This document shows positions 363 through 51,437 of a stretch of 64,000 nucleotides of DNA, one piece after another. Within the stretch, counting starts at the first letter, position 1. The number at the start of each line of letters is the position of its first letter. This stretch comes from a virus, in IMG/VR virus record IMGVR_UViG_3300045988_160359, positions 53,570-117,569 of that record, one strand, 5' to 3'. Position numbers and translations under genes: made by a program. The notes under the pieces are model-generated. The model was given only the letters and a program-made list of their open reading frames with translations. It ran no database searches and had not been told where the DNA came from.

Positions 363-3300
363 ATGCCTACAAGATTATATCCTCCTCAAATAGCAGGAAC
401 ATTACCGGCATTTTACAAATCTTATGATAGTGCTACTGGAGTGTTAAAGGAAAGTTCAATCACTATCCCGTTTACTTCAAGTGCGCTAGTTAGTTCGGCG
501 GATTTTATAGGTTTTTATTTACGTTTGAAAACCTCTTCTACAAATACATATTTATTTCCGCCAATATATTCAAAAAATTATGATAGTAAAAATTCTACGG
601 TTACATTCACATTAACCGCTGATTAGAGTGCATTATTAAATGAAGGACAATATTACAAGGTCCAAATAGCTTATGTGTCTCAATACGTTGAGAGTGAAAC
701 TACTGATATTGACAATGATGGAAATATAATTACTAATAGTGTAATGAAAAAATTAACTGGTTATTATTCTACTATTGGAATTATAAAATGTGTCCAAGAG
801 CCTAAAGTTTCTATTTAGGGTTATTCAATAGATAGTATTAATTTATTTAATAATGAATTATTTGGTGTTTATGAGTTATCTTCAAATTTAGATTAGACTG
901 AAAAAGTTTATTCTTATAATTTTTCATTCTATTTAGAAGATGGGGATTTATATTACTCCACTGGAGAACTATTGCATAACAATGCTAATGATAATGAATA
1001 TGGTTTATCTATTGATTCAGTAGTTTTAAGTAGTTTTATAAAAACTAGTGAAATATATAAATTAATTTATACAGTTACTACAATTAATGGATTGGTAGTG
1101 TCTAGTCCGACTTATAGAGTAACTGCGGAAACATTATTAGCTCCTAGTAAAAATTTAAATATTTTACCAAGAGCGGATTCAGAAACTGGTAGTATTAAAA
1201 TTAATTTTAAAGGTTTAGAAAAAACTGTTAAAATTAAAAATACAATTAAGGAATTAAAACGCAAGGAAGTATATTATAATTATAGTAAATCATTAATTTC
1301 TTAGATTAAATAGAAAATCAATCCTGACTATGAATATTAGGGAGAATAGATAACTAATTTAGAATATTTATTAAAGATAAGTTCAAATGATGAAATGACT
1401 CGATTTTTTGTTGCATTACAAAAATTATTAAGAGATAATGCGGGATTAATAAGTGAACTTTGTGGAGTCTCTCCTGGTTTGTTAATGTCATTAGTTGATA
1501 TATCAGCAGACTATACTAAAGTGTTAAGTCAATATATTATATCAATTACAAAACCTACAATGGTTGAAAAAGATTTTTAGAAGATTAATGATCAATTTTT
1601 AAAGAATACTACAAATTACATTCTTACTACAACAGGAGACTATAAAAATTTAAATACAATATTATAGGTTCGCTTAAACTCTTATGTAGGATATTTATTT
1701 AGTAGTATTGCTACTGATGAAACAGATTTTGATGAAATAGTAACAGATTAGAATTTAATTAATTTGGCTCAAAGTGTTATTACATTAGCTGGATTATCTG
1801 AAGAATTGGCTATAGAATATATGAGTATTTTAGGGTATGCAGCTAGTATTGTTGCCACTGAAGAGAAATCTGAAGATACTTATTTTGGACAATATATTCT
1901 TGTGCGCGCAAGTGAAGAAGATGATTATCGCTCTTGGTTAGAATTAAAACGTTTTAAATTAGAAAATATACGACCTTCTACAATTAATTATGTCGATTAT
2001 ACAGTAAAACAAGGTGTTAAATATATATATGGGATTATTCAATATAATTTATTTGGTATTTATTCTGCAAGAATTGAGAGTGAACCAATTTCTGTTGATT
2101 TTGAAGATATTTTTCTATATGATGGAGAACGGGTGTTAAAAATAAAGTTTAATCCTAAGGTATCTTCATTTAAATCTACCATTTTAGAATAGAAAACAAA
2201 TACGATTGGAAATAAATATCCATTTATTTTTAGAAATGGAAACGTAAATTATAAAGAATTTCCAATTAGTGGATTAATTTCATATTAGATGGATAATGAA
2301 TTATTATTTTATAATCGTGAAATTGAAGAATATATTCGTAATTATACTCTTGATTTTAAATCGTTGGAACTAAAAGAACGTATTGAAAAACAAAAAGAAT
2401 TTCTTAATAAAATGGATTAGATTTTAATAAATCCTTGTGATTTAGTAGAAGAGAATATCCATAAAGAAAGAGATTTTAAAATTGAAGTATTAAACTGGTT
2501 AAATAATGGTAAACCTAAATTATTTAAATCAGGGCCTGAAGGCAACTTTATTGTTTGTATTATGAATGTATCATTATCTCCTACCGATAGTTTAGGCCGT
2601 ATGTTACATTCATTTACTGGTCAGTGTGCAGAAATAGCTGAGTTTAATTATAATAATTTATTACGTTATGGATTTATTAAAGCAGATATTGTTAGTAAAT
2701 ATGTTTCTTTATGGAAAACTTATTATTTAAATGAATATAAGCCTGGTAAAGATATCGAATTATTATTTGACTCAGGTATTAATTATTTTGCTGTAGAAGA
2801 TTTAAAACCTGGTAGTAGTATATTTTTAACTTATGGAGATACAATCGATCGGACTGAAGATGAAATCATAATAGGTATTACTGGAGCCTATCGATATGAA
2901 AATTCTTCACGAATTATTTCAAAAATTAGAATACCTAATAGTATATATAATCATCCAGTAGGAATATTAGAGTGCCAATATCAAGGTTTAAGATATTCTG
3001 ATTTTGATGCAATTACTTCAGTTAATTTAAAAACTATAGTAAGTAATCAATATGTTGGTGTTGATCCAATATTAGAAAATATTAAAGCATTTACTACCGA
3101 TCCCTCTGATTATGCTAAACAATTATTTATAAAAGCTTTAAAAGCTTTAAATGATCGAATTTTATTAAATGATAATTTATCCTATTCAGACTTGCGAGAA
3201 AAACTGGTTGAACGAGGATTTGAGCCAGGAGATATTGTTTAGCATATTAATTCATCATTTTATAACTATGAGAAAGACAAAGTTAAAATATTGAATTTAG

Positions 3301-6300
3301 AATAGTTAAAAATTAGAGTTAGAGAATTAATTCCTATTTATGCAGTTCCTTATGATTATATTACTCAAGAAGGATGGGATAAATTACCAGACTCTGTTGT
3401 TTATTGGAATTCTAATGGTATGACTACGAGTTGTTATAAGGATAAAAAAGAAAAAAGATTTAGTCGTAGTGATTATGAAAATTTATTTCCTAGTTAGAAT
3501 TTATTATATTCAGTAACACCTTTTGGTAAGCCTTATCCTATTGATGCATTAACTCCATTAGTCAAAGATTATTTTGATATTAATGATGAATTTTGTGTAT
3601 TTTAGATGTTTGAATATTCAAAAGAATATCAAACTTGGATGCCGACTTGTCGAAATAATGTTTTTAATATTGCTACTGGACAATATTATGATTGTTATTG
3701 GCAATCTGTTCTTAAAGAGTATGATACATCATATTATATTGGAGAAAAATATCGTTATGAATAGATAGTCGATATCCAACGGGATGAAGAAACACAACGA
3801 TATTATATTATAATTCAAAATAAAAAATATTATTTATCAGATGAATTTAATTTGTATGTTGAAATAAACGGAGAGTATAAATTATTAAAAGAAGTATATT
3901 TATTCCCAACAGATGAAGATGGATATTATACTATTATTACTAATAATGATTCTCGCATCCAAGATAATAGTTATTTAAATGAAGCTGTTCGTTGGAAAAA
4001 TAAAGATGATTATAACCCTGTTCCTGGGTATAATTTAACTACTAGAACTATTGATGAAAATAATATTGCTAAATCAATAGTAAAAGCTTCTGAAATTAAA
4101 CCATTTTATTTGAGAATAGATAATGCGATTCAATTAAATCAAGGAGATACATAGTATTATACAAATTTAGGTTCTCCAAAAGTAATAAAAATTGGGACTG
4201 GATTAATCGCTGAAGCTACATTTTAGTTAGAAGTATTAGACTATTTTACAGAAAAGAATGATGATAGTACATTTTTAGCTAAAAATAGATATTTAGAGCG
4301 ATCTGAAATCTTAAAGAATTTTTATCGAAATTATGAAATTTTAGGAGATGCTGATAATAATTTTTAGAGATTTTTAACATTGAGTCGTTTTTATAATACG
4401 TTATTAAAAGGATTAACTGATAGCAATAATACTCCTTATGAAGATAAAAATACATATTAGTCTAATTTAAATTCACCATTGAATTATCAGGATAGAACTA
4501 TTGTAAATGAAATTTTAAATACCGATAAAGACATAGATTTAAAAAATACTGAAATTGCTGATTTATGGACAGCAGATAATTCTTCAGTTGAAAAGAAAAA
4601 TAAAATCAAGAATGATATTAAAACTACGATAAATAAAATGCAAATAAATAAACGTATGAAAGAAGAATTAGTTTTACAAGATACTGAAGAAAATGATTTA
4701 TTTGATTTAATTAAAAATCCTACTAAAGAAGGTATAAATGATAAATTAGCTAAATTAAATGAACTATATGAATTATTAAGTTCTAATAAAAATACTACTA
4801 TTATGAATAACTAGAATATAGCTTCTGATTATGCTTAGAAATTAAAAAATATAGATTTTGCAGTTAATTCTTATAATAACGCAATCTATAATTATAAAGC
4901 TCATTTATGGTTGTATTGTTTAATTTATCAAAAAATTGCTAAATTAATATATATTGATACAGATAATTATGATGAAAAATTATTAACTGAAGATACATTA
5001 GATAAAATGGAAGCTAACATTTCAATTTCTAACATTTTAGCTGAAATAAAAAATCATTATAATAAAATAATAGAAAATAAAAGTGAGAATGCATCTAATG
5101 AAGCGGAATTAATAAAATAGAAAAATTATTATTTAAATGCTTACGGAAGTATTTAGAAAAATTATTCTGAAATTTTTACTTATAAATCAATTATAAATGA
5201 AAAAGAAGGAGATACTGCATTAGATGAATTATTAATAAAACAATTAATGAATTGTTTATTAGATATTTTTTATCAATATTCTGTAATGATATAGGCTCGT
5301 AAAAATATAAATGAATTATTGAATGGTAAGGCTTAGGATGAAGATACAGATATATTTAAAAAATATATTGGAATTAATGAAAATGCTGATTTGGCTCTCA
5401 GTAAAGTTAAACAAAAAATTAATACTTTAAAAATTGAAGTCATTAATAATAAAGACAATTTAACATTAGCAGATTTATTTTCATAGTATAATTTTTCTAA
5501 AGATAATGTTTCTTATTTTAATTCATTAAATTAGAAATTAATTTATTCTAAAAATAATGTTTTAGGATTTTTAGATAGTCATGCCACTCAAGTAAAAGAA
5601 TATGTCCAAAAAATTGATTATATGGAATATGTTTATAAAGGTGGTAAAGCTTTAGAATGGTAGCATTATAATTATTCTCATTTTATTGTATTTGATAGAT
5701 TGCCATATCAATTATGGGATTTAAATTCAAAAGATATAGATATAAAAAATTACACTTATGAAATTGAATTTAGATCAAGAATTTTAAAATCATTTAGTTA
5801 TTGGAAAGATAATAATTTTGGAGGAGAAGCTCCTGCTTATATATCTACTATGAGTTCAAATCAATAGAATGAAATACGCAGTCAAGTTAATCGTAAAATT
5901 ATTTTAGATATTAGTGAAGATAATATTAATACTGATGATTTAGATATTTATACAAGTTTTGAATTTGATGGATAGATGGACTCAGCTGAATAGAAAGCTA
6001 TTCAAAAAATTAAAATTCAAAAATTGTTAAGTATTATTGAGACATTTAAAGAGGCAACAGATTATCGTAGTGTATTAGATAGTTTAAGTGATTTAATTTC
6101 ATATATGAATAAAAATACGAATGGGCTTGGAGAAACTTGTTTTAAAACATTATATGGAGTTTCTGGCGATAAAGATTTAATTACAATACTTACAAATTAT
6201 AATTAGACTATAAATTCTATTCAAGATGAATTAATAAAAAGTAATGAATTAGATACTTAGTTTATTAAAATTGGACAAATTAGTAAAACTGATTTTGATT

Positions 6301-7469
6301 TTTTCAATCCTTCTAAAGTTTACTATATTTTAAAAGATGATAATTATTAGTTATAGACTGTTTATTCAAATACTGCTATTTATTATTTAAAATTAAAAGA
6401 TTATTTAGTAAAAACTCATTTTGAATATTATAATGCATTAATGGTAGCAAAAGATTATTAGAATATTACAACTGAATTGATTTATAGTGTTTTAAATTCT
6501 TAGAATACTAAAAAAGCAGAATTTGAATTAGGAAAAATGCAATTATATAATTCAAATGGTTTTGTTCCTACTGTTATCACTAAAGAAAATTATCAAGAGT
6601 GTAATAATTTTGTTTATAATAATGTTACGAAATTTGAACGACAAACATTTGATTCAGCTATTAGTTATGATAAAAAGTCCAAAGATACATTCTTAGCGAA
6701 AAATATCACTGGTGGAGATAATGCATTATCAAGTCATAATAATTCAATTAATGCAATTTTAACTAATTATAATAATTTAATAAAGAAAAATGGTATCGTA
6801 AATAAATTATATTCAACTTATTCAAAATTAGGCAATACCCCTATTGTTTTTACAGATGAGGGAAATAATGCTCTTAATGCATTAGATTTGTCTAAAATAA
6901 ATATAAGTATATTAACTGCATCAGATACAACAGCAGTAGGAAAATTTAAACATCTATTATTAATTAAATATTTATCTAAATTTATTAATTTGTTCTATTG
7001 GTGCAACACTTAGTTGTTTGTTGAATATGATTTAAATATTCGCTTAGCTGAATTATATACTAATTTACCAAAACCATGGTCTGAAGCTTCTGAGAACTAT
7101 CCTTCTATAACTGCTCATGGTATTGTATATTGGTATTTAGAATATGTTTTAAATAAAGCTATAAATGATTATAATGATGCATTGGAATAGGCGGAATTAT
7201 TAAATATTTTTTATACAAACAAATAGACAAACTATAAAGAGAAATAGGCATTATATGAGGCTAAATATAAAGAATATTTATAGATTTTTACAGCATTTAT
7301 GGCTCCTGAATATAAGGAATATTGGAAATATTATAACTCATCTGATATATTTAATAAAAATGAACAAATGAAAAAGTTAATTGAAGAAGTCAAAAATCTA
7401 TGGTATGATTTTATTTTAACTCTTGATAAAGGATTCAAAAAAGAGATAGAGGCGGGTATGTACCAATGA
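363..7469 (+). CDS. Giant virion/tail protein (2368 aa; tape-measure-like position and size); TAG-recoded
   Basis: RBS aaaggagaatgatgtATG precedes it. Ten ORF-track fragments (363, 972, 1395, 1764, 2562, 3852, 4479, 4911, 6024, 6537) are all in frame 0. Codon-by-codon reading finds only TAG (about 45) and no TAA/TGA in frame 0 until TGA at 7467-7469. The gap 3243-3851 was checked position by position and is open. The frame-1 ORF 3574..3768 is a spurious overlap. Confidence 0.75.
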
Positions 7470-16521: not shown

Positions 16522-16579
16522 TTTAAGGACAATCTATAATAATTATATTCGTGGTTTTTTTAAAAATCAACGAAGGAAT

Positions 16580-16663: not shown

Positions 16664-19600
16664 ATGAGCAATAAACGATTCATCCCTGTTCGTGGTACTG
16701 AAGCTAAATTAGATTTAATGGGTTTTAATGATGGGTATGTTTATTTTGCAGTTGATACTGGTAAAATTTTCATAGACTATACTCAAGCTGATGGTACAAT
16801 GGTATCACGAAAGCTTTTAGGAAGCGGTAGTGGTGGTGGCTCAGGAAGTAATTCTGGTATTTATTATGCCAATTATACTCCGACTGATGCTGAAAAATTA
16901 GAAGATGAAATCAATATTCCAATCGGAGCTATTGAAGGTGGAGAGTACCCTGAAGAAGATGATTTAATTATCAATTTAGGTGATAATTGTTTTTATCGTG
17001 TAATAAAAGTTCAGCGAGCATTTCAAAATGTGCTATGTCGTCGTTTAACTGTTGCTGGTGGAGGCGGAGGAGATGACCCTAGTTCATTGGCTTCTGATAT
17101 TGAATTAACCGTAGACTCATTACCTACTGTTAATTTAATTAATGGGCGTTCTCAAGAAATAACATTTGTTGCGACATCAGCAAAAAATAAAAAGGGTAAT
17201 TCTTATGACTCTATTCTAACAATTAATTGGAAATTAGAATATACTGATGATGGCACCAATTATAATCAATACAATTCAGGAACATTCCAAGTACCTGATG
17301 GTGAGAAATATGCTTTTGAATTTGGTAAATTGGCTAAAGATGATGCTTCTTCAAGATTGGTATTAGTGGCTAGCCAAACCAATCATCCAAGTACAGTTAC
17401 TCGTTTGATAACATTTAAAACTTCTAAATTAGAGTTACAAGAATCAAGTAGTTTTTCTAATTTAAGTTATTTTGAGCCTAGTAAATTAGTATTACAATGT
17501 AATGTTAATGGTGCGATGGATAAAATTGTTGAATATTATTTTGACAATGAAGATGAACCATTTTTAAGTGTACCTTTAGCTGCTAATTCAACTACGTTAT
17601 AGACTGTTAATGTTTCACAATATATCCCTGTAGTTAATGGTTATCATAAAGTTTGGATTCGTTTATTCCAATCAATTAATGGCAAAAAAGGGATTGAAGT
17701 TAATCCTTTAATTTTTGAAATAGCTGTTTATGATGGTCTAGACCCTCAAGCTCCTCCAATTATTTGGTTAGGAGATTATAAAGATGAATATTATAATTAT
17801 GACACTATTCAAATTCCTTTCCGTGTTTTTGACCCATAGGCCGAAAACCCAGTAGTACATTTTAAACGTAATAACATTGAACTTTCTTATTCTCCTCAAA
17901 CAATTACAGATTCTAAGAAATTTGCTATTTTTGAAATCGCTAATCCTGAATTAAATGTAATTAATCACTACACTATTACTTGTGGTGATGGAACTCGTGA
18001 AACTACTCGTAAGATTGAAATTCGTGTTGTAAATGACCCAACAAGAACAGACTTTGGTATTTAGAAATAGGGATTTTTGACTTATTTATTAAATACAGTA
18101 GGTAGTGGACGTTCTAATTCTGAAACGTTAGCTAAACGTACTACTTTAATAAATTCTTCTACTGCTTTAGGGGCTGAGCCTTGCGCGGCGACGTTTACTA
18201 ATTTTAATTGGTATAATAATGGTTGGACTACGGATGAAGATAATAAAACTTGTTTACGTATTAGTAATGGTGCTAAATTATCTATTCCTATTGGTCGTAC
18301 TGTATTTTCAAATCCTAGCGGCTCTCAAGCTACTGAACAGTCTCATAGTATTGAATTAACTTTCAAAATTCGTAATGTTTAGGATTATTCAAATTTAATT
18401 CGTACTATTACTCGTTATAAAAATGATGAAAAATTATATAAAGCATTTTATGATGAAGAAACTGGTAAATTTAATACTACATACACCAACTATGATGCAT
18501 TTTTAGCTTGGTATTTAAAAACTTATGAAGTTGAATTTGTTGATAAAAAAGGTAATAAGCGTAGAATGGAATATGATGATTTAGAGTTTAGTCATATTGC
18601 CAAGCAAATTAATTTAAGTAATGTCATAGGTAGTTACTCTTCTGGTAATACTAAAGCCGTTACTGGTTTATGTTTAGGACCATAGGATGCATTTTTCTCT
18701 AATGGTACTGACACAGTAAACGTATCTTATGTAGAAAATAAAATTATTACTTTATCTGTTGTTTGTAAATATAGTAAAGAAAAAATTCAAAATCTAATTT
18801 ATATTTATTTAAATGGTGTATTAACTAGTGTTGTTAGAAACACTCAAGAAAATGGATTTGTTGTAGAAAATGATAAAATTGAATTTAACAGTAATTATTG
18901 TGATATTGATTTATATAAAGTCCGAGTATATCGCACTGATTTAAATGTTAATGATATTGTCATGAATTATGCTGCTGACTTTGAGAATGTAAATATTTAC
19001 GATCAAAATAAATTAGCAGAAGAAAATACCGCTATTGATGAATTCCAGTTTAGTTATCCTAATATGATAAAGTATAACAATGAACATCCTGATGCTCCAT
19101 TAATGCCTTATATTATTTTTGATACTACTAAATTAGAAGATAGTGAAAATAAACTTCCTTATTCTAAAAAGGTTAAATTAAACATTGGAGTTGAATTTGT
19201 TAACACTCCACTTGAAATGTATTATAATAAAGGTAAATTGGAAGAATTGGCTAAGGCTGATAAATTATTTGGTGATGGTGCGACAGCAGCTGAAAAACAA
19301 AAAGCTGTTGAAACTTATTATAAATATCATTGTCCTTCATTTATTAGTGATAGCGCATCAATGAGCGTTCAAGGAACTTCATCTGAATTCTATCCTCGTA
19401 GAAATTATAAAGTTAAAACTAAAAATAACGATGCGGTTGATGGCGAAAAGCGCGTTAATATTTTCTTAAACCGCGGTCCATTCAGAGAATAGTATAATGC
19501 TGATGTATTAGGTTCTACTCAGAAACCTTATATTTTAAGTACAACATTGGGGCCTCTAGTTGATTCTGCTACTGGTCAATTAAAAATTAAATATTATGAA

Positions 19601-22600
19601 GATGAAAATGGTGAAAAGGAAGTTACATTTAGTGAGACTAATCCTTATAAACCTAATACTTTTTATATTGAAAATACTGCTTATGTAAAACGAGGAGAAG
19701 AAAAAACTCGTCAAAAATATTGGTATTTTAATAATTATACTTGTGGAACCCATAAATTTACTATGAAGATTGACTACATGGAATCTTCTGGAACTTATAA
19801 TATGGGATTCGCAAATATGGTTAAAAATGCTTATTCTAAACATCCATTAGATGATTATAATAATGCAAAAGCATTTTAGGTTTTAGACCCTGACAAAACT
19901 GTTGAGACTGAAACAACTGAGTATGTTCCTGGAACTACTTATACTTATTATAATCATAAAGGCAATCCGAAAACAGCAAGTAATGAAGTTTTAGAAGATA
20001 ATATTGTGATTACCAGCAAAGAAGATTTTGATTTAGGCCCATACGCATTATATCAAAAATTAATGGCTGAAAATCCAACTGTTTATTCAAAATTAAAAGT
20101 AGCTGATTCAAGTAATCCTAAATATAATAAATGGTATATTATGAAACCTGGATACAGTGATTTTAAAGTTGAAAATACTGATGATTATCGCACTTCTGTA
20201 CGAGGGTTCCGTGTACTTGCATTCCATAAAAAGAAACCAGTCGATGGTAGCACAGAGCCTATTTATCAATTTATTGGTATATATAATATGCTTTTAGATA
20301 AAGGTTCTGATGAAGTATATGGATTCGCACTTGACAGTACTACTGGCAAAGATCCAAAAGCTAAATTTATAGGCGATGGTACTAAGAGTATGCCTAAAGT
20401 AGCAGAATGCTGGGAGTTTGAAAACAATAGCCGTACCTTCTGCTCATATCGTGACCCACAAGACCGCAAAGATTTGAAATTTGATGTATTTAATGCTGAT
20501 GGTTCTCGTGTATTAAATGCAGTTCAATCTGCCCCTGTGGTAGCAGACTCATTTGAATATCGTTATCATAATGACGAAGATATTCTTGATTATATTATGG
20601 CTCCTGATGGAGAATGTAAGAAAGACCCAACATTAACATTCTCTAAGGATGATATTACATTAAATCAAGAAAATCGCGCTCAGCATTTATTGAAAGATTA
20701 TTCTAATTGGGAACGTGCTGTAGCTTGGGTTTGGAGTACTTGCACTGAAAAAGTTGTATCAAATGGTACTTATAAAATCTGTGATGTTGGTGAAGAGTTA
20801 TTTGATAGTAATAAACATTATATTATGACAACTAATCCATTAACTTCTGAATAGATTTATACCTTAGCTGAAGAATATATAGAAGGCACTACTTATTATA
20901 AAAAGAATCCTGACTATAATCCTAATCAAGAAAATAGTTATGAATATATTGTTGCTTATGTTGGAACAGTATTATTTAGTGCTATTAAAACTAAATTATA
21001 TACTGGTGAAATTGATAAAAATAATAATATTACTTATGTTCCTTGCTATAGTACTGATACATTTAACCCCGATAAACGTTATTATACTTTGGAATCTTAT
21101 AGCGATGAAGAGTTAGATACAAAGGCTGATAGATTAGTTGTTTTATGTAAAGATGAAACATTTGATGCAAGTAAAACATATTATAATTATGATGGAAATG
21201 CTAAATGCGGTAAAGCAGTGACTAAAGCTACTGTAACTGCTGAAACTTATGAGCCAAATAAATATTATATTGGAACCATTATTACTTATGGTGACCGCTC
21301 TTATAAATATGATACACAAGAGTATCGTGGTGATAAATTTACTTATGAATTAAGTGACCATTTCGATAAAGAATATATGGCTACATATTTTGTTATGACA
21401 GAAATTTTTGAATGTTATGACTCTCGTGGTAAAAACTGCATGATGGCTTCTTGGGGTCCTCAAAAGAAAGGCGGAGACTATATTTGGTATCCAATTTTCT
21501 ATGATATTGATACTCAATTAGGTATTAATAATACTGGTATCCCTTCATTTGAATATAATGTTGATGCTACTGAAGATGGTAACTATTCTACTTCTGATAG
21601 TGTTTTATGGAATAATTTCTATAAATATTTTAAAACTGGCTTAATTATCCCTAAATATAGACATTTACGTGGTATTACTACTGATGTATTTGATTCTAAT
21701 TTAAAACAACCACCTTTAAAAACTGTTGATCGTATTGAGTCATATTATTTAACTGATTATAATATAACAAATAACTTAGCTGACTTGGGCACACGTCCAT
21801 TAGTAGCAGTTAACTTAGATGAATATTATAAATATATTACTATTACGAATGATGCTTCTTACTTAGATGGTACTACTGGACATATTAGTAGTGATACAAC
21901 TGGTGTATATACTGTTGATACTAATGGTACTTATTTCTATGCTTTACAAGGAAATAGAAGTCTATCTCGTCAACAGTTCCTATCTAACCGTTTAGAGTAT
22001 ATTGACTCTTGGTTAAATGAAGGTAACTATCAACGTGGTGGTGCAAACCGCATTCGTGGTCGTGTTGCTGCGAACAATAAAAATAAAACTTCAGATAAGT
22101 GGATTGAAACTGCTAGTGATCCTTATTTTAAGGATGAAAGTACTTTAACTAAAAATCATTTATTTGATGCTGAATATTGGATGACATTAACTCCAGCCCA
22201 CTCTTCTTATGTTACTCTTGGTGATGATAATGAAGCCTATCCTTCTCGTAAATACGATGGTGTTCATGCACTAAGATTTAATATTGATTCTATTGAAAAT
22301 GGTGTCCGTAAGAGTGAAAATTATCCTGAACAATTGCTATATGTTTATGGTATTAACCAAATGAAAGACCTTGGCGATATGAGTAATCTATATTGGCAAG
22401 AGTTTGAAATTTCTGGTGATGCTACTAAATTAACTAGTTTGAAATTAGGATATGATGGTTTGGATGAAAATGGAGAGCGTTGGCATAATGACAATGTTAA
22501 CCAATTCAGTATTCCTGCCAGCTCTTCTGATAGTAAAGGCATGCCCTTATTAAAAGAAGTAAATATGAGTAATATTCAATTTAATGCTGCTTCTCCTATA

Positions 22601-24838
22601 TTAGATTTAACCAGTTGTGAAAAATTAGAGAATTTCCGTGCTACTGGTTCTAATTTAATTAATGTCTAGTTTGCTAAAGGCGTCGCATTAAATACTGTAT
22701 ATTTACCTACTAGTATTACAAATCTTGAATTAGTTGAAGCTAATTTATTAAAGAATGTAATTACTGAAGATGAATATGAGAATCCTACCCGTGATGATGA
22801 AGGTAATTTACATGCTAATCCTGGTTTATATCTCCAAGGTTTCTTTGATAAAACCTCAACTGGAGATAAGGGCGATACAGTAATTGCTTCTCTAAATATT
22901 GCTGGTGGCGGCTTAGGCTATGATAGTTATAAACTATTAAAACAATATTATGCTATTCGCAGTCAATAGACTAATACTTCTCAAATTTCTATGACCGATG
23001 TTAATTGGTGTCCATATGTTTAGATGACTGTTGATGATGAACGTAATCCATCTACTACTTATTATGTGGATAATGGACATTATGGACTAGAACCTTATAC
23101 TTATACTAATTTTGATGCATGGACTATTAAAGTTGAAAATGGTGAAATTTATCGTAAGGATGAAACAATTCCAGAAGATAAAATAAATCAAATTACTGAT
23201 TTAGCTATGTTTAAAGAATTTATTAGTGATAAAAAATGGGTTAAAAATTCTAGTAAAAATATTCCTGATATCTCTGGTATTATTTATATTAATAATACAG
23301 AAGTTATTAAAGAATCTGAATTACGTAATATTATTCAAGTCGCTTATCCTAATTTAACAATTTTCTGTGCAAACGTTGAATAGGGATATACTGCTAGATT
23401 TGTAATTATGGATGAAGATGAAGGTAATGACGGTTGTTATCAGTTAATTGGCTCTATGACTTTAAAAGATGGTGAAACTTGGTTTGCTGATCCTATTGAT
23501 ACATTTGGTGATGTTAGTGAGAAAAAGCCGAATCATGATTTCTATGGTTGGGCATTGACAAATTCTGCTAGCGCTGATATCCTTATTAATATTGATAAAA
23601 GTATCAATAAATGGAATGAACAAACTCTTGATAATAATATTCATACTTATACATTCTATGCTATTTGTCCTATTCACAAATGGAGTGTTAAATATTATTA
23701 TAAAGATAGTACATTAATTGAAGAGAAAAAAATCCCTCATGGTAATTATGCTGTAATGTCTACTATTATTCCTTGGAAAGATGATAGTGATTTACCATTG
23801 GAATAGACCTATAAATTCTTAGGATATAATCGTTCTACTACTTCTAATACAGTTATGAAATTAGAAGAATATATGATTACTGAAGATACTACTTTCTATG
23901 CCGTATTTGATTCTAATCCTATAAGCGTTTATGATGATATCCATCCTGAATATTTTGAGCCTACTACTCAGGAATATAATTCACTATCTTCTCCATCTTC
24001 TTGGATATTTAGCGATCCAACAGAAGGTTTTAATAGTAAATGGTCTGTAATGAGTGATGGTATCGTTTTAGGTTTATGTAAAAAAGTTAAAGGTAAATTG
24101 ACAGTTCCTGCATTTTATGAATACAATGGTAAAAAATTAAAAGTTATTGGTATTGATGCTTCATTTAGTTCTCCTGGTGATGTTACTAATAGTAACCAAG
24201 CAACGCCAAATGCTAAAACGATTGGTGGTAATACTATTGTAGCAACTTGTTATGGAGAAGATTTAACTCATGTGTTCTTCGAGAAGTATACTGATAATGA
24301 TGGTAATTAGAAATGTAATATTAGAAAATTTAATATCGCTACATTCTCTCATTCTTATGGTTTAAAATGGGTAGAATTCCCTGAAGGCTTACGAGTAATT
24401 GATGCTTACTGTTTTGCTTTAAATGGCGATCGTGATAAAAAATTAGTTGGTTCTTTAGAAAATGCTAATATTAGTGGAACAATTACTGAAATAGGTTAGA
24501 GCGGATTTAAAAATAGTTTTAGTCCTAAAGTTGAGGCATTAATTATTGGTCCTTCTGTGAGCTATATTGATGTTCAAGGTATTGATTTCTGGTCTAATTC
24601 AGACTTGAATAAAGGATTAACTGGTGGTATTAATAAAATTATTATTGGTACTCCAGAAGAAAAATCTAAATTATATACTTAGAAAAAGCTCGATTATGGT
24701 TCAACAGGAATTAGAGGATATAGAACCAATGCTGATCGTAAGATTAATAGTATTGATTGGTATACTACATTATCTCGTGATGATACTATTTCAGTCTTTG
24801 GTAGCGGTATTGATACCAGTACGGTAAATTATTTATAA
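16664..24838 (+). CDS. Giant tail fibre / receptor-binding protein (2724 aa); TAG-recoded
   Basis: RBS gaaaggagatacttgcATG precedes the start. The N-terminus PVRGTEAKLDLM...GYVYFAVDTGKIFID carries the tail-fibre motif. Nine ORF-track fragments (16664, 18077, 18962, 19547, 20006, 21089, 23024, 23408, 23855) are all in frame 2. Gaps 17603-18076, 18383-18961, 22670-23023 and 24311-24836 were verified open codon by codon, with only TAG present. The gene stops at TAA 24836-24838. It contains Gly-rich linkers (SGSGGGSGSNSG, VAGGGGGDD). Confidence 0.75.
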
Positions 24839-30919: not shown

Positions 30920-31000
30920 ATTATATTTCCTCCATTCTCTTTATAAAAATAAAAAATATAAATAAAAAATTATTTATATCTGTCCAATTTTAATTATAAT

Positions 31001-48027: not shown

Positions 48028-48522
48028 TCACATTTTTTCCCATAAGTCAAATGGAGCATAATAAACTTTTTGATTGCGTGAGCCGCGCATAGGTAAAGTA
48101 ATATCTCGTTGTTCAATTTTAAATGGGCCATCAATAATACAGTCAATATTATCAACAATATTTTTTAGATGTGGCTCTCTGCGCGTAGCCAATTCATCCA
48201 TTGTATATCCAGTCCATAAAAAAATTTTTGTTTTGGGAAGAGCTTCTTTAATATGTTCAATAATTAAATCTACAAGGAATAGATTTTCTGGGGCGAGAGG
48301 CTCTCCGCCCATAATACAAAAATCACGATGTATACCATTAGCAGTAAGAGCATTTACTATATCATCTAATGTATCTGTAGTAAATTCTTTTCCGCCATTA
48401 AAATCCCAAGTTTCTGGATTCTAACAACCTTCGCAATGTCTGGCGCATCCTTGAGTGAAAAATGAGACACACACTCCAGGAGCTCCAGCAATATCATTTT
48501 TAATTATTCCTGCGTATCTCAT
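48028..48522 (-). CDS. nrdG: Anaerobic ribonucleotide reductase activating protein NrdG (radical SAM), with one in-frame TAG
   Basis: Reverse-strand RBS aggag precedes ATG (cat 48520-48522). The N-terminus MRYAGIIKNDIAGAPGVCVSFFTQGCARHCEGC-(TAG)-NPETW matches the NrdG CxxxCxxC-x-N..TW motif. TAG at 48421-48423 joins the N-terminus in frame to ORF 48028..48312 (GGEPL, DGPF). Its ATG overlaps the nrdD TGA (ATGA). Confidence 0.8.
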
Positions 48523-50768
48523 TCCATCACTCCTACGTGTTTGACTCGATGTTCAACTTCATCTTGCTTTCCTAAATTAAATGCAGTTTTATAATTACCA
48601 GTTAAATAGCCAGTCACACGACGAAGTTGCTGGATTTCTTTACTACCACATTCTGGACATTTATCATTAAATTCACCAGTATATCCACACTTGAGACAAG
48701 TATCATTAGGAACATTTACAGCAAAATAAGGAATATCTTTGTCCATAGCATAATTTACAATTTGTTCAAGAGCAGTTAAATTATTAGATACTGTAGAGTC
48801 TAACTCAACATAAGTAATACAACCGGCATTACTATATCCAGTTAATTGACTCTCAATATCAATTTTGTCAAATGGGCTCATTTCTTTCCATACAGGAACA
48901 TGAATTGAATTAGTAAAAAATTCTTTATCACTTACATTAGGAATTTCGCCATACTTAGCCTTAAATTTCTTCATTGCAGTATAGCAGAGATTTTCCGCGG
49001 GAGTGTAATAAACACCGAAGTTTAATTTATATTGTTCCTTAAATTCCGCACAACGCTGTTTAAATAAGGATTCAATTTTTTTTGCTAATTCCATTCCCTC
49101 TGAAGTAGTATGGTCAACGCCAATAAGAATTTGTAGAGTTTCTGCTAGTCCTAACTGACCTAGAGCCAGTGTTCCATGTTTAAGCGCGCTTCTAATTCCT
49201 TCTTCTGGGATATAGCCTGCCATCAAATTATTTTCATACATGAATTTGGCTGAAGCCGGGCTTTGAGAGCAAATCCAATTAAAACGTTCAATTAATTGAT
49301 CTTTTGCTTCATGAATTTTTTCATCAAGTAAAGTCATAAAACTTCTAATTCTAGCAGCTTTTGGAGTTAATTGGAAATCACTGTTTTCAGCGGCTTCTTT
49401 TGCCAGCATAGCTAATGTAGGCATAATAATGGTTACTGGACAAATATTTCCACGGCCATCTTTTAATTGACCTAAGCCGTTAATATCATATCCATTAGCG
49501 GTTCGGCATCCCATTGTGCTAAAATAGGTGCGTGGGTCATTAATATCATAGCCAGCATTTCCAGACCAATCAACATTCGCATAATTAGGATATAATCTTT
49601 TAGCAGTAGATTTTAACGCAAGTTTAAATAAATCATAATTCGGGTCACCTGGTTCTCTATTAACACCCTTCATGCATTGGAAAATTCCACAAGGGAAAAT
49701 AGAAGTTTTATGTAATTTACCTAATCCTTCAAGAGACACTTCTAATAGGGCTTTTGTAATCATTCTTCCTTCTGGAAGAGTACAAGTTCCATAGTTAATA
49801 GAAGTAAATGGAAGTTGGTTACCACTACGACTTTGAAGAGTATTTAAATTATGATACATACCTTCAACTGCTTGATGGATTTCTTTTTCTGTCTGTTTTA
49901 GAGCATAATTATAAGCATTTTGATGACCAAATTGACTTTGCAATTCTTTATTAGAAATTTCAATAGGCTCACAATCACTCATAATTTGTAGAGCCATACC
50001 TTCACTATAATCATCAACATCAGTTAAATAGGCTTTAAAATGTTTTCTAAAACTCTTTTTAACATAAGGAACCATAGTCCAATCAAGATGAGTAGCACTA
50101 ACTCCACCAAACTGTTGAAGAGATTGTAATTGAAAAATAACTGCAACTAATTGGAATGCCGTATTTACTGAACCCGCTGGACGCACATCTGTTTGACGAG
50201 TATTAAATCCATTAGCAAGTAAATCATCAAATGGAATTGATAAACAGTTATGGTCGCCCACAGCATAATGGTCAAGGTCGTGAGTGTAAATCATATTCTC
50301 TTCATGATTACGTTTTGTGCGAGGAGATACGATATAATCAAGGGCATATTGTTTCATTAAGAGACTATTGGCTTCCCCCATACGCCCACCAAATGATGCT
50401 TCATCAACATTAGCATTTTGATTTTGAATATTAGCTCCACGAATTTTTTCACCAATCGCAGTAATAAATTCAGTTGAATGAGTGCGAGCGACTTCTTTTT
50501 TATATCTATAGCGAATATAAGCACGAGCAATATCAGGACGCTCTGATGCCATTAACGCTTCTTCAATCCAATTTTGGATGTCTTCAACATTAACACTTCC
50601 ATCGGGGAAATGACTCGCTCTATATTCTACTTCATCAGCGATGCTATTAATACTATCTGATTCAAAAATATTTTTATCTACAGCAATAAATGCTTTAGTA
50701 ATAGCATCAATAATTTTTTGTTTGTTAAATGGCATTACATCGCCATTACGTTTAATTATATAAAACAT
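48519..50768 (-). CDS. nrdD: Anaerobic ribonucleoside-triphosphate reductase NrdD (class III RNR)
   Basis: The 749-aa protein has an ATP-cone-like N-terminus. The C-terminus has a Zn-ribbon (CLKCGYTGEFNDKCPECGS) and the glycyl-radical motif RVTGYL. There is no in-frame TAG. Confidence 0.85.
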   Translation of the reverse strand: MFYIIKRNGDVMPFNKQKIIDAITKAFIAVDKNIFESDSINSIADEVEYRASHFPDGSVNVEDIQNWIEEALMASERPDIARAYIRYRYKKEVARTHSTEFITAIGEKIRGANIQNQNANVDEASFGGRMGEANSLLMKQYALDYIVSPRTKRNHEENMIYTHDLDHYAVGDHNCLSIPFDDLLANGFNTRQTDVRPAGSVNTAFQLVAVIFQLQSLQQFGGVSATHLDWTMVPYVKKSFRKHFKAYLTDVDDYSEGMALQIMSDCEPIEISNKELQSQFGHQNAYNYALKQTEKEIHQAVEGMYHNLNTLQSRSGNQLPFTSINYGTCTLPEGRMITKALLEVSLEGLGKLHKTSIFPCGIFQCMKGVNREPGDPNYDLFKLALKSTAKRLYPNYANVDWSGNAGYDINDPRTYFSTMGCRTANGYDINGLGQLKDGRGNICPVTIIMPTLAMLAKEAAENSDFQLTPKAARIRSFMTLLDEKIHEAKDQLIERFNWICSQSPASAKFMYENNLMAGYIPEEGIRSALKHGTLALGQLGLAETLQILIGVDHTTSEGMELAKKIESLFKQRCAEFKEQYKLNFGVYYTPAENLCYTAMKKFKAKYGEIPNVSDKEFFTNSIHVPVWKEMSPFDKIDIESQLTGYSNAGCITYVELDSTVSNNLTALEQIVNYAMDKDIPYFAVNVPNDTCLKCGYTGEFNDKCPECGSKEIQQLRRVTGYLTGNYKTAFNLGKQDEVEHRVKHVGVME

Positions 50769-50780
50769 TTATAACCTCCG

Positions 50781-50826
50781 CACTAAATATAGTGGAAAAA
50801 ATTAGGATATCCACTATATTTAGTGT
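50781..50826. promoter_or_regulatory. Two NrdR-box-like 16-bp palindromes spaced 31 bp centre to centre, upstream of nrdDG
   Basis: The boxes are gCACTAAATATAGTGg (50780-50795) and cCACTATATTTAGTGt (50811-50826), against the NrdR consensus acaCwAtATaTwGtgt. The two arms also form a 15-bp perfect inverted repeat. They sit between the RBS (50771-50779) and the probable promoter. Confidence 0.6.
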
Positions 50827-50840
50827 TTGTTGTAAATAAA

Positions 50841-51437
50841 TTAATAAGTTATGTCCAGATGCTCCGGCCACCGAGACAGGAATAATGCTAAATCTTTATA
50901 TATACATTCTAATTCCGCAGGAGTATTATTTATATATAACCAATTACATAAATCATCAGCATCTTCAAAATCAAGTTTATCTGTTTTATATCGACGAATA
51001 ATTTCATCAATATCCGGGTTAGCCTCTCGATTTAGCTATCTAATTAATCGAATTTTATCATCTGCGTGAATATAAACGATAATTAAATTTACTCGTTTAT
51101 CATGTAATAAAATCTCTGCGCCTTCTGGATTAAATACTCCTACATTGATAGCGCCTTCTTTGACTGATTCAATTCCTGTGCCATAGCACCATTCATTAAA
51201 AACAGTAGCTTCAAACATTTGATTCTATAAAATCATTTCAGCAAATTTTTCTGCTGAGATAAAATGGTAGTTAATACCATCCACTTCTTTTTCTCTTGGA
51301 GGTCTTGAAGTATAACTTATAATTTCATGTAGAGGTAATTTACCATTATAATAATGTTTTGTATCATCAATTAGTTTACGGAGAATGGTATCTTTACCAC
51401 TCCCCGCTTCACCAATTAATGCTAATATATTATACAT
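50841..51437 (-). CDS. gmk: Guanylate kinase-like nucleoside monophosphate kinase (198 aa), with 2 in-frame TAG
   Basis: It has Walker A GEAGSGKDT and the guanylate kinase signature TSRPPREKEVDGINYHFIS...CYGT. ORFs 51225..51437 and 51036..51218 are joined through TAG 51225-51227, and a second TAG lies at 51036-51038. It stops at TAA (tta 50841-50843). Its ATG overlaps the dnaE TAA (TAATG). Confidence 0.7.

Follow-up and report, generated by a model that had tools for sequence, protein, structure and literature searches.

NrdR is described as a strictly prokaryotic repressor specific to ribonucleotide reductase (RNR) genes, and its sites have been catalogued in cellular genomes only. An NrdR site is defined as two partially palindromic 16-bp boxes, each with conserved C4, A6, A8, T9, T11 and G13, located in the promoter region of an RNR operon (PMC13584703; PMC12051234). 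The boxes are separated by a linker of 15-16 bp, with linkers of 14-17 bp still being bound, and it is the length of this linker and not its sequence that is constrained (PMC13584703; PMC12051234). NrdR is encoded in 77% of bacterial genomes (PMC13584703). In Listeria monocytogenes, the chromosomal nrdDG operator consists of two 16-bp partially palindromic boxes before nrdD-nrdG that overlap the RNA polymerase (RNAP) binding site, and its measured KD is in the nM range (PMC12051234). In Escherichia coli, the nrdDG operator, also chromosomal, is composed of the boxes GCACTATATATAGACT and ACCCAATATGTTGTAT (PMC13584703, Table 1), which are neither mirror images nor identical, since by each measure they agree at 3 of 10 variable positions. 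No description of NrdR boxes in a phage was found in the literature searched, where the NrdR papers are silent on phages and viruses.

Sites for transcription factors of the host are found on phages in other contexts: PhoB boxes precede cyanophage pstS and phoA, LexA boxes occur on temperate phages, and stx is under the control of Fur. The locus described here would follow the same logic, in which a phage-borne metabolic gene is wired to the sensor by which the host governs its own version of the pathway, with a different regulator and a different signal, here the dATP/ATP ratio. In its design the element is that of a textbook NrdR operator, and phage capture of host regulator sites is a familiar theme rather than a new field. 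Judging from its sequence and its conservation, this 47-bp element is likely to be a functional operator through which host NrdR controls the phage nrdD-nrdG operon.

The window, that is, the whole 64-kb stretch of gut-phage DNA that was analysed, carries the two boxes inside a 72-nt intergenic gap directly upstream of nrdD-nrdG. In gene orientation, the order is box 1, a 15-bp linker, box 2, GGAGG, six bases and ATG. The features of the locus are given below, with scores from a position weight matrix (PWM) where applicable.

50826..50811, minus strand: NrdR box 1 (distal), ACACTAAATATAGTGG in gene orientation, 6/6 invariant positions, PWM score 14.7 bits
50810..50796, minus strand: linker, ATATCCTAATTTTTT, 15 bp, the canonical length
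50795..50780, minus strand: NrdR box 2 (proximal), CCACTATATTTAGTGC in gene orientation, 6/6 invariant positions, PWM score 13.8 bits, abutting the ribosome-binding site (RBS)
50779..50775, minus strand: nrdD Shine-Dalgarno sequence GGAGG, read from the sequence
50768..48519, minus strand: nrdD, class III (anaerobic) ribonucleotide reductase, 749 aa (Pfam NRDD, 3.4e-147)
48522..48028, minus strand: nrdG, activase, 164 aa (Pfam Fer4_12, 4.6e-36, and Radical_SAM)
50841..51437, minus strand: guanylate-kinase-like gene, 198 aa (Pfam Guanylate_kin, 6.7e-20, with TAG read as Gln)
50813..50786, minus strand: candidate sigma-70-type promoter A, from a consensus scan, 9/12 matches
50840..50813, minus strand: alternative candidate promoter B, with a weak -35, recurring in 11/23 representative relatives
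50857..50840, minus strand: conserved upstream block tGGRCA-N8-TAAT (TGGACATAACTTATTAAT), overlapping the last codons and stop of the guanylate-kinase-like gene

Read directly on the plus strand of the window, CACTAAATATAGTG lies at 50781-50794 and CACTATATTTAGTG at 50812-50825; both match CACTAWATWTAGTG exactly, and no other exact match occurs in the 64 kb. The corresponding full 16-mers on that strand are GCACTAAATATAGTGG (50780-50795) and CCACTATATTTAGTGT (50811-50826). A previous sequence-only reading of this DNA had proposed two NrdR-box-like 16-bp sites at 50781-50826, and the sites are real, with all six invariant positions present in both; the end of this interval is right, but its start is not, because the first box begins one base earlier, at 50780. 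The box centres, at 50787.5 and 50818.5, are 31 bp apart, the canonical tandem spacing that had been claimed. The position upstream of phage nrdD-nrdG likewise stands, with both genes on the minus strand and supported by Pfam matches. NrdD also has an N-terminal ATP-cone (3.6e-21) and a Gly_radical domain (2.5e-9); its gene contains no in-frame TAG, and its ATG (50768..50766) lies 11 nt past the end of box 2. The nrdG start overlaps the nrdD stop as ATGA. On the upstream side, the operator is adjoined by the guanylate-kinase-like gene, which contains two in-frame TAG codons and is itself preceded by genes for a DnaE-type polymerase, helicases and a primase.

The phage pair agrees with the described NrdR sites in box consensus, in linker length, in its position upstream of an RNR operon, and in the conservation of the length but not the sequence of its linker. 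As in L. monocytogenes, two 16-bp partially palindromic boxes stand before nrdD-nrdG; the linker is 16 bp long in L. monocytogenes and 15 bp in the phage, and the distance from box 2 to the ATG is 13 bp and 11 bp, respectively (PMC12051234). The phage site differs from its Listeria counterpart in lying on a phage genome instead of a chromosome, with no cognate nrdR known in cis, and in having boxes that are mirror images of each other and capable of forming a hairpin. The linker of the E. coli nrdDG operator is 15 bp, as in the phage, and the phage proximal box on the plus strand (GCACTAAATATAGTGG) equals box 1 of that operator at 13/16 positions, including all six invariant ones, although the E. 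coli site belongs to a host of another phylum than the phage's.

The sequence-only reading had placed the boxes between the nrdD RBS and a promoter further upstream, but the sole sigma-70-like hexamers sit inside the boxes, so that the operator more likely overlaps the promoter. Candidate promoter A is composed of a -35 TGGATA (50813..50808), a 16-nt spacer and a -10 TATATT (50791..50786) inside box 2; it is a pattern match only, and recurs in just 5/23 relatives. Candidate promoter B, the most recurrent promoter-like arrangement among the 23 relatives, has a -35 TTTATT (50840..50835), a 16-nt spacer and a -10 TATAGT (50818..50813) inside box 1. From this arrangement, an overlap of the operator with the nrdD promoter is more probable than a position between that promoter and the RBS. 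The boxes of L. monocytogenes overlap the RNAP binding site (PMC12051234), an arrangement that the phage boxes would share.

Further upstream, the block tGGRCA-N8-TAAT stands out as conserved columns when the upstream regions of 23 diverse phage nrdD genes are aligned without supervision, irrespective of which gene precedes them, and in most related phages it lies ~30 nt upstream of box 1. This block may belong to a promoter or serve as the site of an activator. It was considered as a third NrdR box ("box 0") and rejected, with PWM scores of at most 2.3 bits and conserved positions that disagree with the box; as a sigma-54 promoter, it lacks GC at the required distance after GG; and its TGGACA has no acceptable -10 at 16-18 nt downstream that would make it a sigma-70 -35. 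Two more copies of the block are found in the window, at 16527-16543 (plus strand) and 30969-30985 (minus strand), both intergenic, each lying upstream of the next gene and oriented toward it.

Because the G+C content of the window is ~30%, loose motif definitions carry no weight. The six-position core alone is found 24 times against 22 expected, and the published box-pair regular expression (PMC12051234) finds 2 pairs against 2.0 expected; neither count discriminates in an AT-rich window, so both were rejected as significance tests in favor of PWM and pair scoring. Pairs with 6/6 positions in both boxes at an allowed spacing were observed once in the window, against 0.085 expected, and CAC..GTG 14-mers, counted as singles, twice, against 0.35 expected. 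A PWM was made from ten experimentally bound boxes (PMC13584703, Table 1) with the composition of the window as background, and under this matrix box 1 (14.7 bits) and box 2 (13.8 bits) rank first and second among ~64,000 window positions. These scores fall within the range of the training boxes themselves (10.5-19.8 bits), which come from E. coli and Streptomyces coelicolor. As a pair, the boxes score 28.5 bits, against 8.1 bits for the next best pair in the window; in 300 dinucleotide shuffles, the best pair had a mean of 11.3 and a maximum of 20.9 bits, and 0/300 reached 28.5. Scoring against the AT-rich background had been put forward with the sequence-only reading as a check on it, and the outcome does not refute that reading. 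The 64-kb window thus contains a single box pair of such quality, at the RNR operon.

Conservation was followed in related phages by searching IMG/VR with the NrdD protein, which returned 80 loci at 69-99% identity, mostly on contigs of 75-200 kb. Among 50 distinct nrdD upstream regions, 32 have a pair with a linker of 14-17 bp, matching the core at 12/12 positions in 24 and at 11/12 in 8, and such pairs usually end 9-20 nt before the nrdD start codon. In a control of ~755 random 200-nt segments from the same loci, 12/12 was found in 0 and 11/12 in 1. When 23 diverse representatives were aligned with MAFFT without supervision, box 1 and box 2 emerged as conserved blocks, and in most of these sequences the two positions chosen by the independent PWM, ~31 nt apart, coincide with these blocks. 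Positions outside the selection criteria are conserved as well, namely T14 of box 1 (18/18) and A3 of box 2 (17/18). The linker is 15 bp in 8 relatives, 16 bp in 6, 14 bp in 3 and 17 bp in 1; in contrast to the invariant box cores, linker sequences are unrelated among relatives (~0.3 bit per column), and the inner flanks of the boxes are better conserved. The pair is missing from phages with an ORF immediately ahead of nrdD.

The pair was also sought in the reverse direction, by scanning IMG/VR for ACTAWATWTAG-N19-21-ACTAWATWTAG. More than 120 stretches matched and 80 loci were examined, of which 10 are homologous to the phage; nrdD starts 10-19 nt after the site in 9 of these 10, and the remaining locus ends 35 nt past its site. 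When the 75-nt operator region was compared by blastn with 50,697 phage records, only chance matches were obtained. Among cultured phages, a 12/12 pair is present in Enterocloster phage PMBT24, where it precedes two small annotated ORFs and lies ~460 nt upstream of nrdD; no box pair was found near nrdD in Thomasclavelia phage TR-TP1 or Enterococcus phage VRE9_4. The PMBT24 pair (OQ326496.2, locus L150, 7977-8023) falls within an annotated 36-aa "hypothetical protein" ORF, which may have been called in error where the DNA is regulatory. In TR-TP1 (L001, 3971-7094), nrdD is annotated in two pieces with an HNH endonuclease gene between them, which suggests an intron or intein bearing a homing endonuclease. 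In one phage subgroup (L046, L051 and similar loci), box 1 is perfect and the proximal box, in the last ~20 nt before nrdD, is degenerate (4/6 core positions), with the RBS embedded in its center (ATACAAGGAGTTGT).

Could the boxes be a non-functional relic, imported together with nrdD by horizontal transfer from a bacterium? Phage NrdD is 62-70% identical to that of chromosomal nrdD genes of Bacillota and Bacteroidota, with 66-68% in Erysipelotrichaceae, and bacterial nrdDG operons commonly carry boxes; one Oscillospiraceae nrdD locus, for example, has a textbook pair. On the other side, core and spacing are kept across phages whose NrdD proteins are just 70-77% identical, whose upstream genes differ and whose linkers have been randomized. 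Moreover, the pair is absent within 600 nt of genuine Erysipelotrichaceae chromosomal nrdD loci, which are the closest bacterial ones, so the site was not merely imported with the gene. The relic explanation is therefore highly improbable. In the Erysipelotrichaceae loci (L094, L095, L098-L102, L104, L109-L113 and L132), nrdD follows a long leader in which a T-run precedes ATGCC, and these genes may be under a different mode of control.

One property of the phage pair goes beyond the published site definition. A 16-nt inverted repeat (50781-50796 / 50810-50825) has arms that are 100% complementary with 13 nt between them; the full boxes are 15/16 complementary to each other, and this mirror relation far exceeds the self-palindromy of each box. 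The operator region folds as RNA at -24.6 kcal/mol (z = -6.7), with no shuffle as stable and with the Shine-Dalgarno sequence unpaired. Across the ten variable positions of 20 distinct phage sites, complementarity between boxes amounts to 116/200, whereas permuting box 2 among phages gives 98.9 (P ~2e-4, a value inflated by relatedness among the phages), direct identity between boxes is 80/200, and self-palindromy is 72-78/200. Some sites, such as that of L022, are mirrored at 9/10 positions and self-palindromic at 0/10, whereas experimentally bound bacterial sites reach a mirror complementarity of only 2-4/10. This symmetry points to an additional or alternative constraint.

It could accordingly be proposed that the element is mainly a nucleic-acid hairpin, either a DNA cruciform or a 16-bp RNA stem, in the 5' leader or in read-through mRNA, with an effect on stability, processing or translation, to which the likeness to NrdR boxes is secondary. 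The complete arms, the stable fold and the excess of complementarity over permuted expectation all fit such a hairpin. However, RNAalifold found no consensus structure over the 23 diverse relatives, a search of 50600-51000 against Rfam gave no family, and several relatives that have both cores (among them L021, L024, L035 and L039) are poorly complementary. Nor does a hairpin explain the invariant C4, A6, A8, T9, T11 and G13 or the fixed 14-17 nt loop, and box 1 would not be transcribed if transcription started at either predicted promoter. In addition, quasi-palindrome correction can generate such symmetry with no selection involved, and another possible source is the two-fold symmetry of the NrdR tetramer, as suggested by the better conservation of the inner flanks. 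With these points taken together, a hairpin as the main function is quite unlikely. The role of an intrinsic terminator was also considered and rejected, as the scan predicts none on the minus strand here and the stem is A+T-rich and followed by GCGGAGG. Mirror symmetry and hairpin potential are not required by the reading as an NrdR operator; they may come from neutral quasi-palindrome correction, or from a secondary RNA role on read-through transcripts.

As to the protein that would bind the boxes, no phage nrdR was found in the data examined. When the window and 148 loci were searched by tblastn with E. coli and Bacillus subtilis NrdR, no NrdR homologue was obtained, the sole signal being a weak match to the ATP-cone of a bacterial NrdD, and no NrdR-like ORF is found within 4-5 kb on either side of nrdD in ~150 loci. 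The NrdR signature AY[VI]RFASVYR, scanned for as a degenerate pattern that would miss a divergent protein, matched 4 stretches in all of IMG/VR, none of them from the family of the window phage; the window covers about one third of the phage genome. Given that nrdR is absent from the window and its signature nearly absent from IMG/VR, the binding protein would be that of the host, and host NrdR is, on sequence grounds, the most economical candidate.

The host itself is probably a member of the Bacillota. This is suggested by the phage polymerase, which shares 39% identity with the YorL protein of SPbeta-like phages infecting Bacillus, Enterococcus and Staphylococcus, by the nearest nucleotide matches, which are cultured phages of Thomasclavelia and Enterocloster, by the closest genuinely bacterial NrdD proteins, from Erysipelotrichaceae and Clostridia, and by the strong GGAGG RBS. 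The presence of NrdR in this host is assumed from the general prevalence of NrdR among bacteria. Since the Erysipelotrichaceae loci are without the pair, NrdR control might be absent if the host is of that lineage. Identical or nearly identical contigs with phage-type nrdD (L126, L127 and L148; L082, L083 and L121) are found in metagenome-assembled genomes (MAGs) labelled Clostridia, Bacilli, Methanobrevibacter, Mollicutes and Clostridium. Such contigs are most likely mis-binned, and because the same contigs appear under discordant labels, a host call from MAG labels is unreliable. A search for contigs reaching past the window gave only short ones on that side, with nothing new.

The pair is not confined to relatives of the window phage. 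The other ~70 of the 80 loci examined in the reverse scan belong to unrelated large phages (L161-L240), which share with the window the same core motif but no genes other than a distant nrdD. Their pairs are perfect ACTATATATAGT-N-ACTATATATAGT arrangements, mostly mirror-symmetric, with a linker of 14-16 bp (for example, L194 2534-2577; L203 10842-10884; L240 1640-1682 and 3539-3582), and two or more per contig are present in at least three contigs. The genes beside them encode an NAD-dependent DNA ligase (followed by nrdDG), a dUTPase, an AAA_24 ATPase and a protein with a weak match to nucleoside hydrolase, and many encode hypothetical proteins; a TGAAA-N7-TTTCA hairpin often follows the pair. 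As these pairs stand upstream of varied genes, phage pairs of this type are not always tied to RNR, and they could represent an "NrdR regulon" widespread among phages or else a distinct operator system of phages.

Such a phage-wide operator system, with several perfect pairs per genome, is what would be expected if a regulator encoded by the phage bound the boxes, be it an unrelated repressor recognizing the same dyads or a divergent NrdR whose gene lies beyond the window, and the 64 kb of the window leave room for the regulator gene in a genome of ~166-200 kb. Against this stand the searches above, which gave no NrdR-like ORF in the window or near nrdD in ~150 loci and only four signature-bearing stretches, none from the family of the window phage. 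In addition, the window has a single site, at the RNR operon, and its boxes match the sites bound in E. coli and S. coelicolor as well as the training sites do. A phage-encoded regulator is accordingly held to be quite improbable here. Altogether, at the level of sequence and comparison, the data support the proposal of the sequence-only reading that control by host NrdR has been placed on a phage RNR.

Expression of the operon involves a translational step as well. In the window, the summed length of ORFs of 100 aa or more rises from 47 kb under the standard code to 71 kb when TAG is counted as sense. Large plus-strand ORFs, which are probably structural genes (for example, 363-7469 and 16664-24838), contain up to 45 in-frame TAGs, and most replication genes contain none. 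The phage reads TAG as a sense codon, most likely for Gln, and no tRNA genes were found in the window. In nrdG, an in-frame TAG at codon 34 (48423..48421), read directly from the sequence, lies inside the radical-SAM Cys motif, where relatives have CAA or CAG (Gln) or a His codon. Production of an active activase therefore needs TAG suppression, a second, translational gate on the operon.

By analogy with described NrdR systems, control by host NrdR would proceed as follows. When dATP is plentiful, NrdR loaded with dATP and ATP would form a tetramer, the zinc-ribbon domains of which would contact both boxes, three helical turns apart. The DNA would be bent and the promoter and RBS-proximal region occluded, so that nrdDG would be off. 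Phage DNA synthesis would drain the dNTPs, leaving ATP-only NrdR oligomers that would be unable to bind DNA, and from the freed operator the anaerobic reductase and its activase could be made. Lytic phage infection of Streptococcus pneumoniae strongly induces the NrdR regulon of the host (PMC6755750), which indicates that such a signal is available to a phage and that a phage gene behind an NrdR operator would switch on while replication depletes the dNTPs.

A more far-reaching proposal is that the element combines an NrdR-titrating decoy with an RNA hairpin and that, with the multi-copy pairs found elsewhere, NrdR is a general dNTP-pool switch for gut phages. Boxes amplified with the phage genome would titrate the few NrdR tetramers of the cell and de-repress the RNR operons of the host, while read-through from the polymerase and kinase genes would give a 16-bp RNA hairpin gating or stabilizing the nrdDG message. 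This combination is unlikely, and control of phage nrdD-nrdG by host NrdR is the reading retained here. If that reading is true, the phage sites would provide a natural set of diverged operators in which to test which box positions, and which symmetry, matter. The operator would also offer a sequence handle for host prediction, as the host must carry nrdR. For the phages themselves, it would mean that dNTP supply is coupled to the dATP/ATP sensor of the host instead of being left to constitutive expression.
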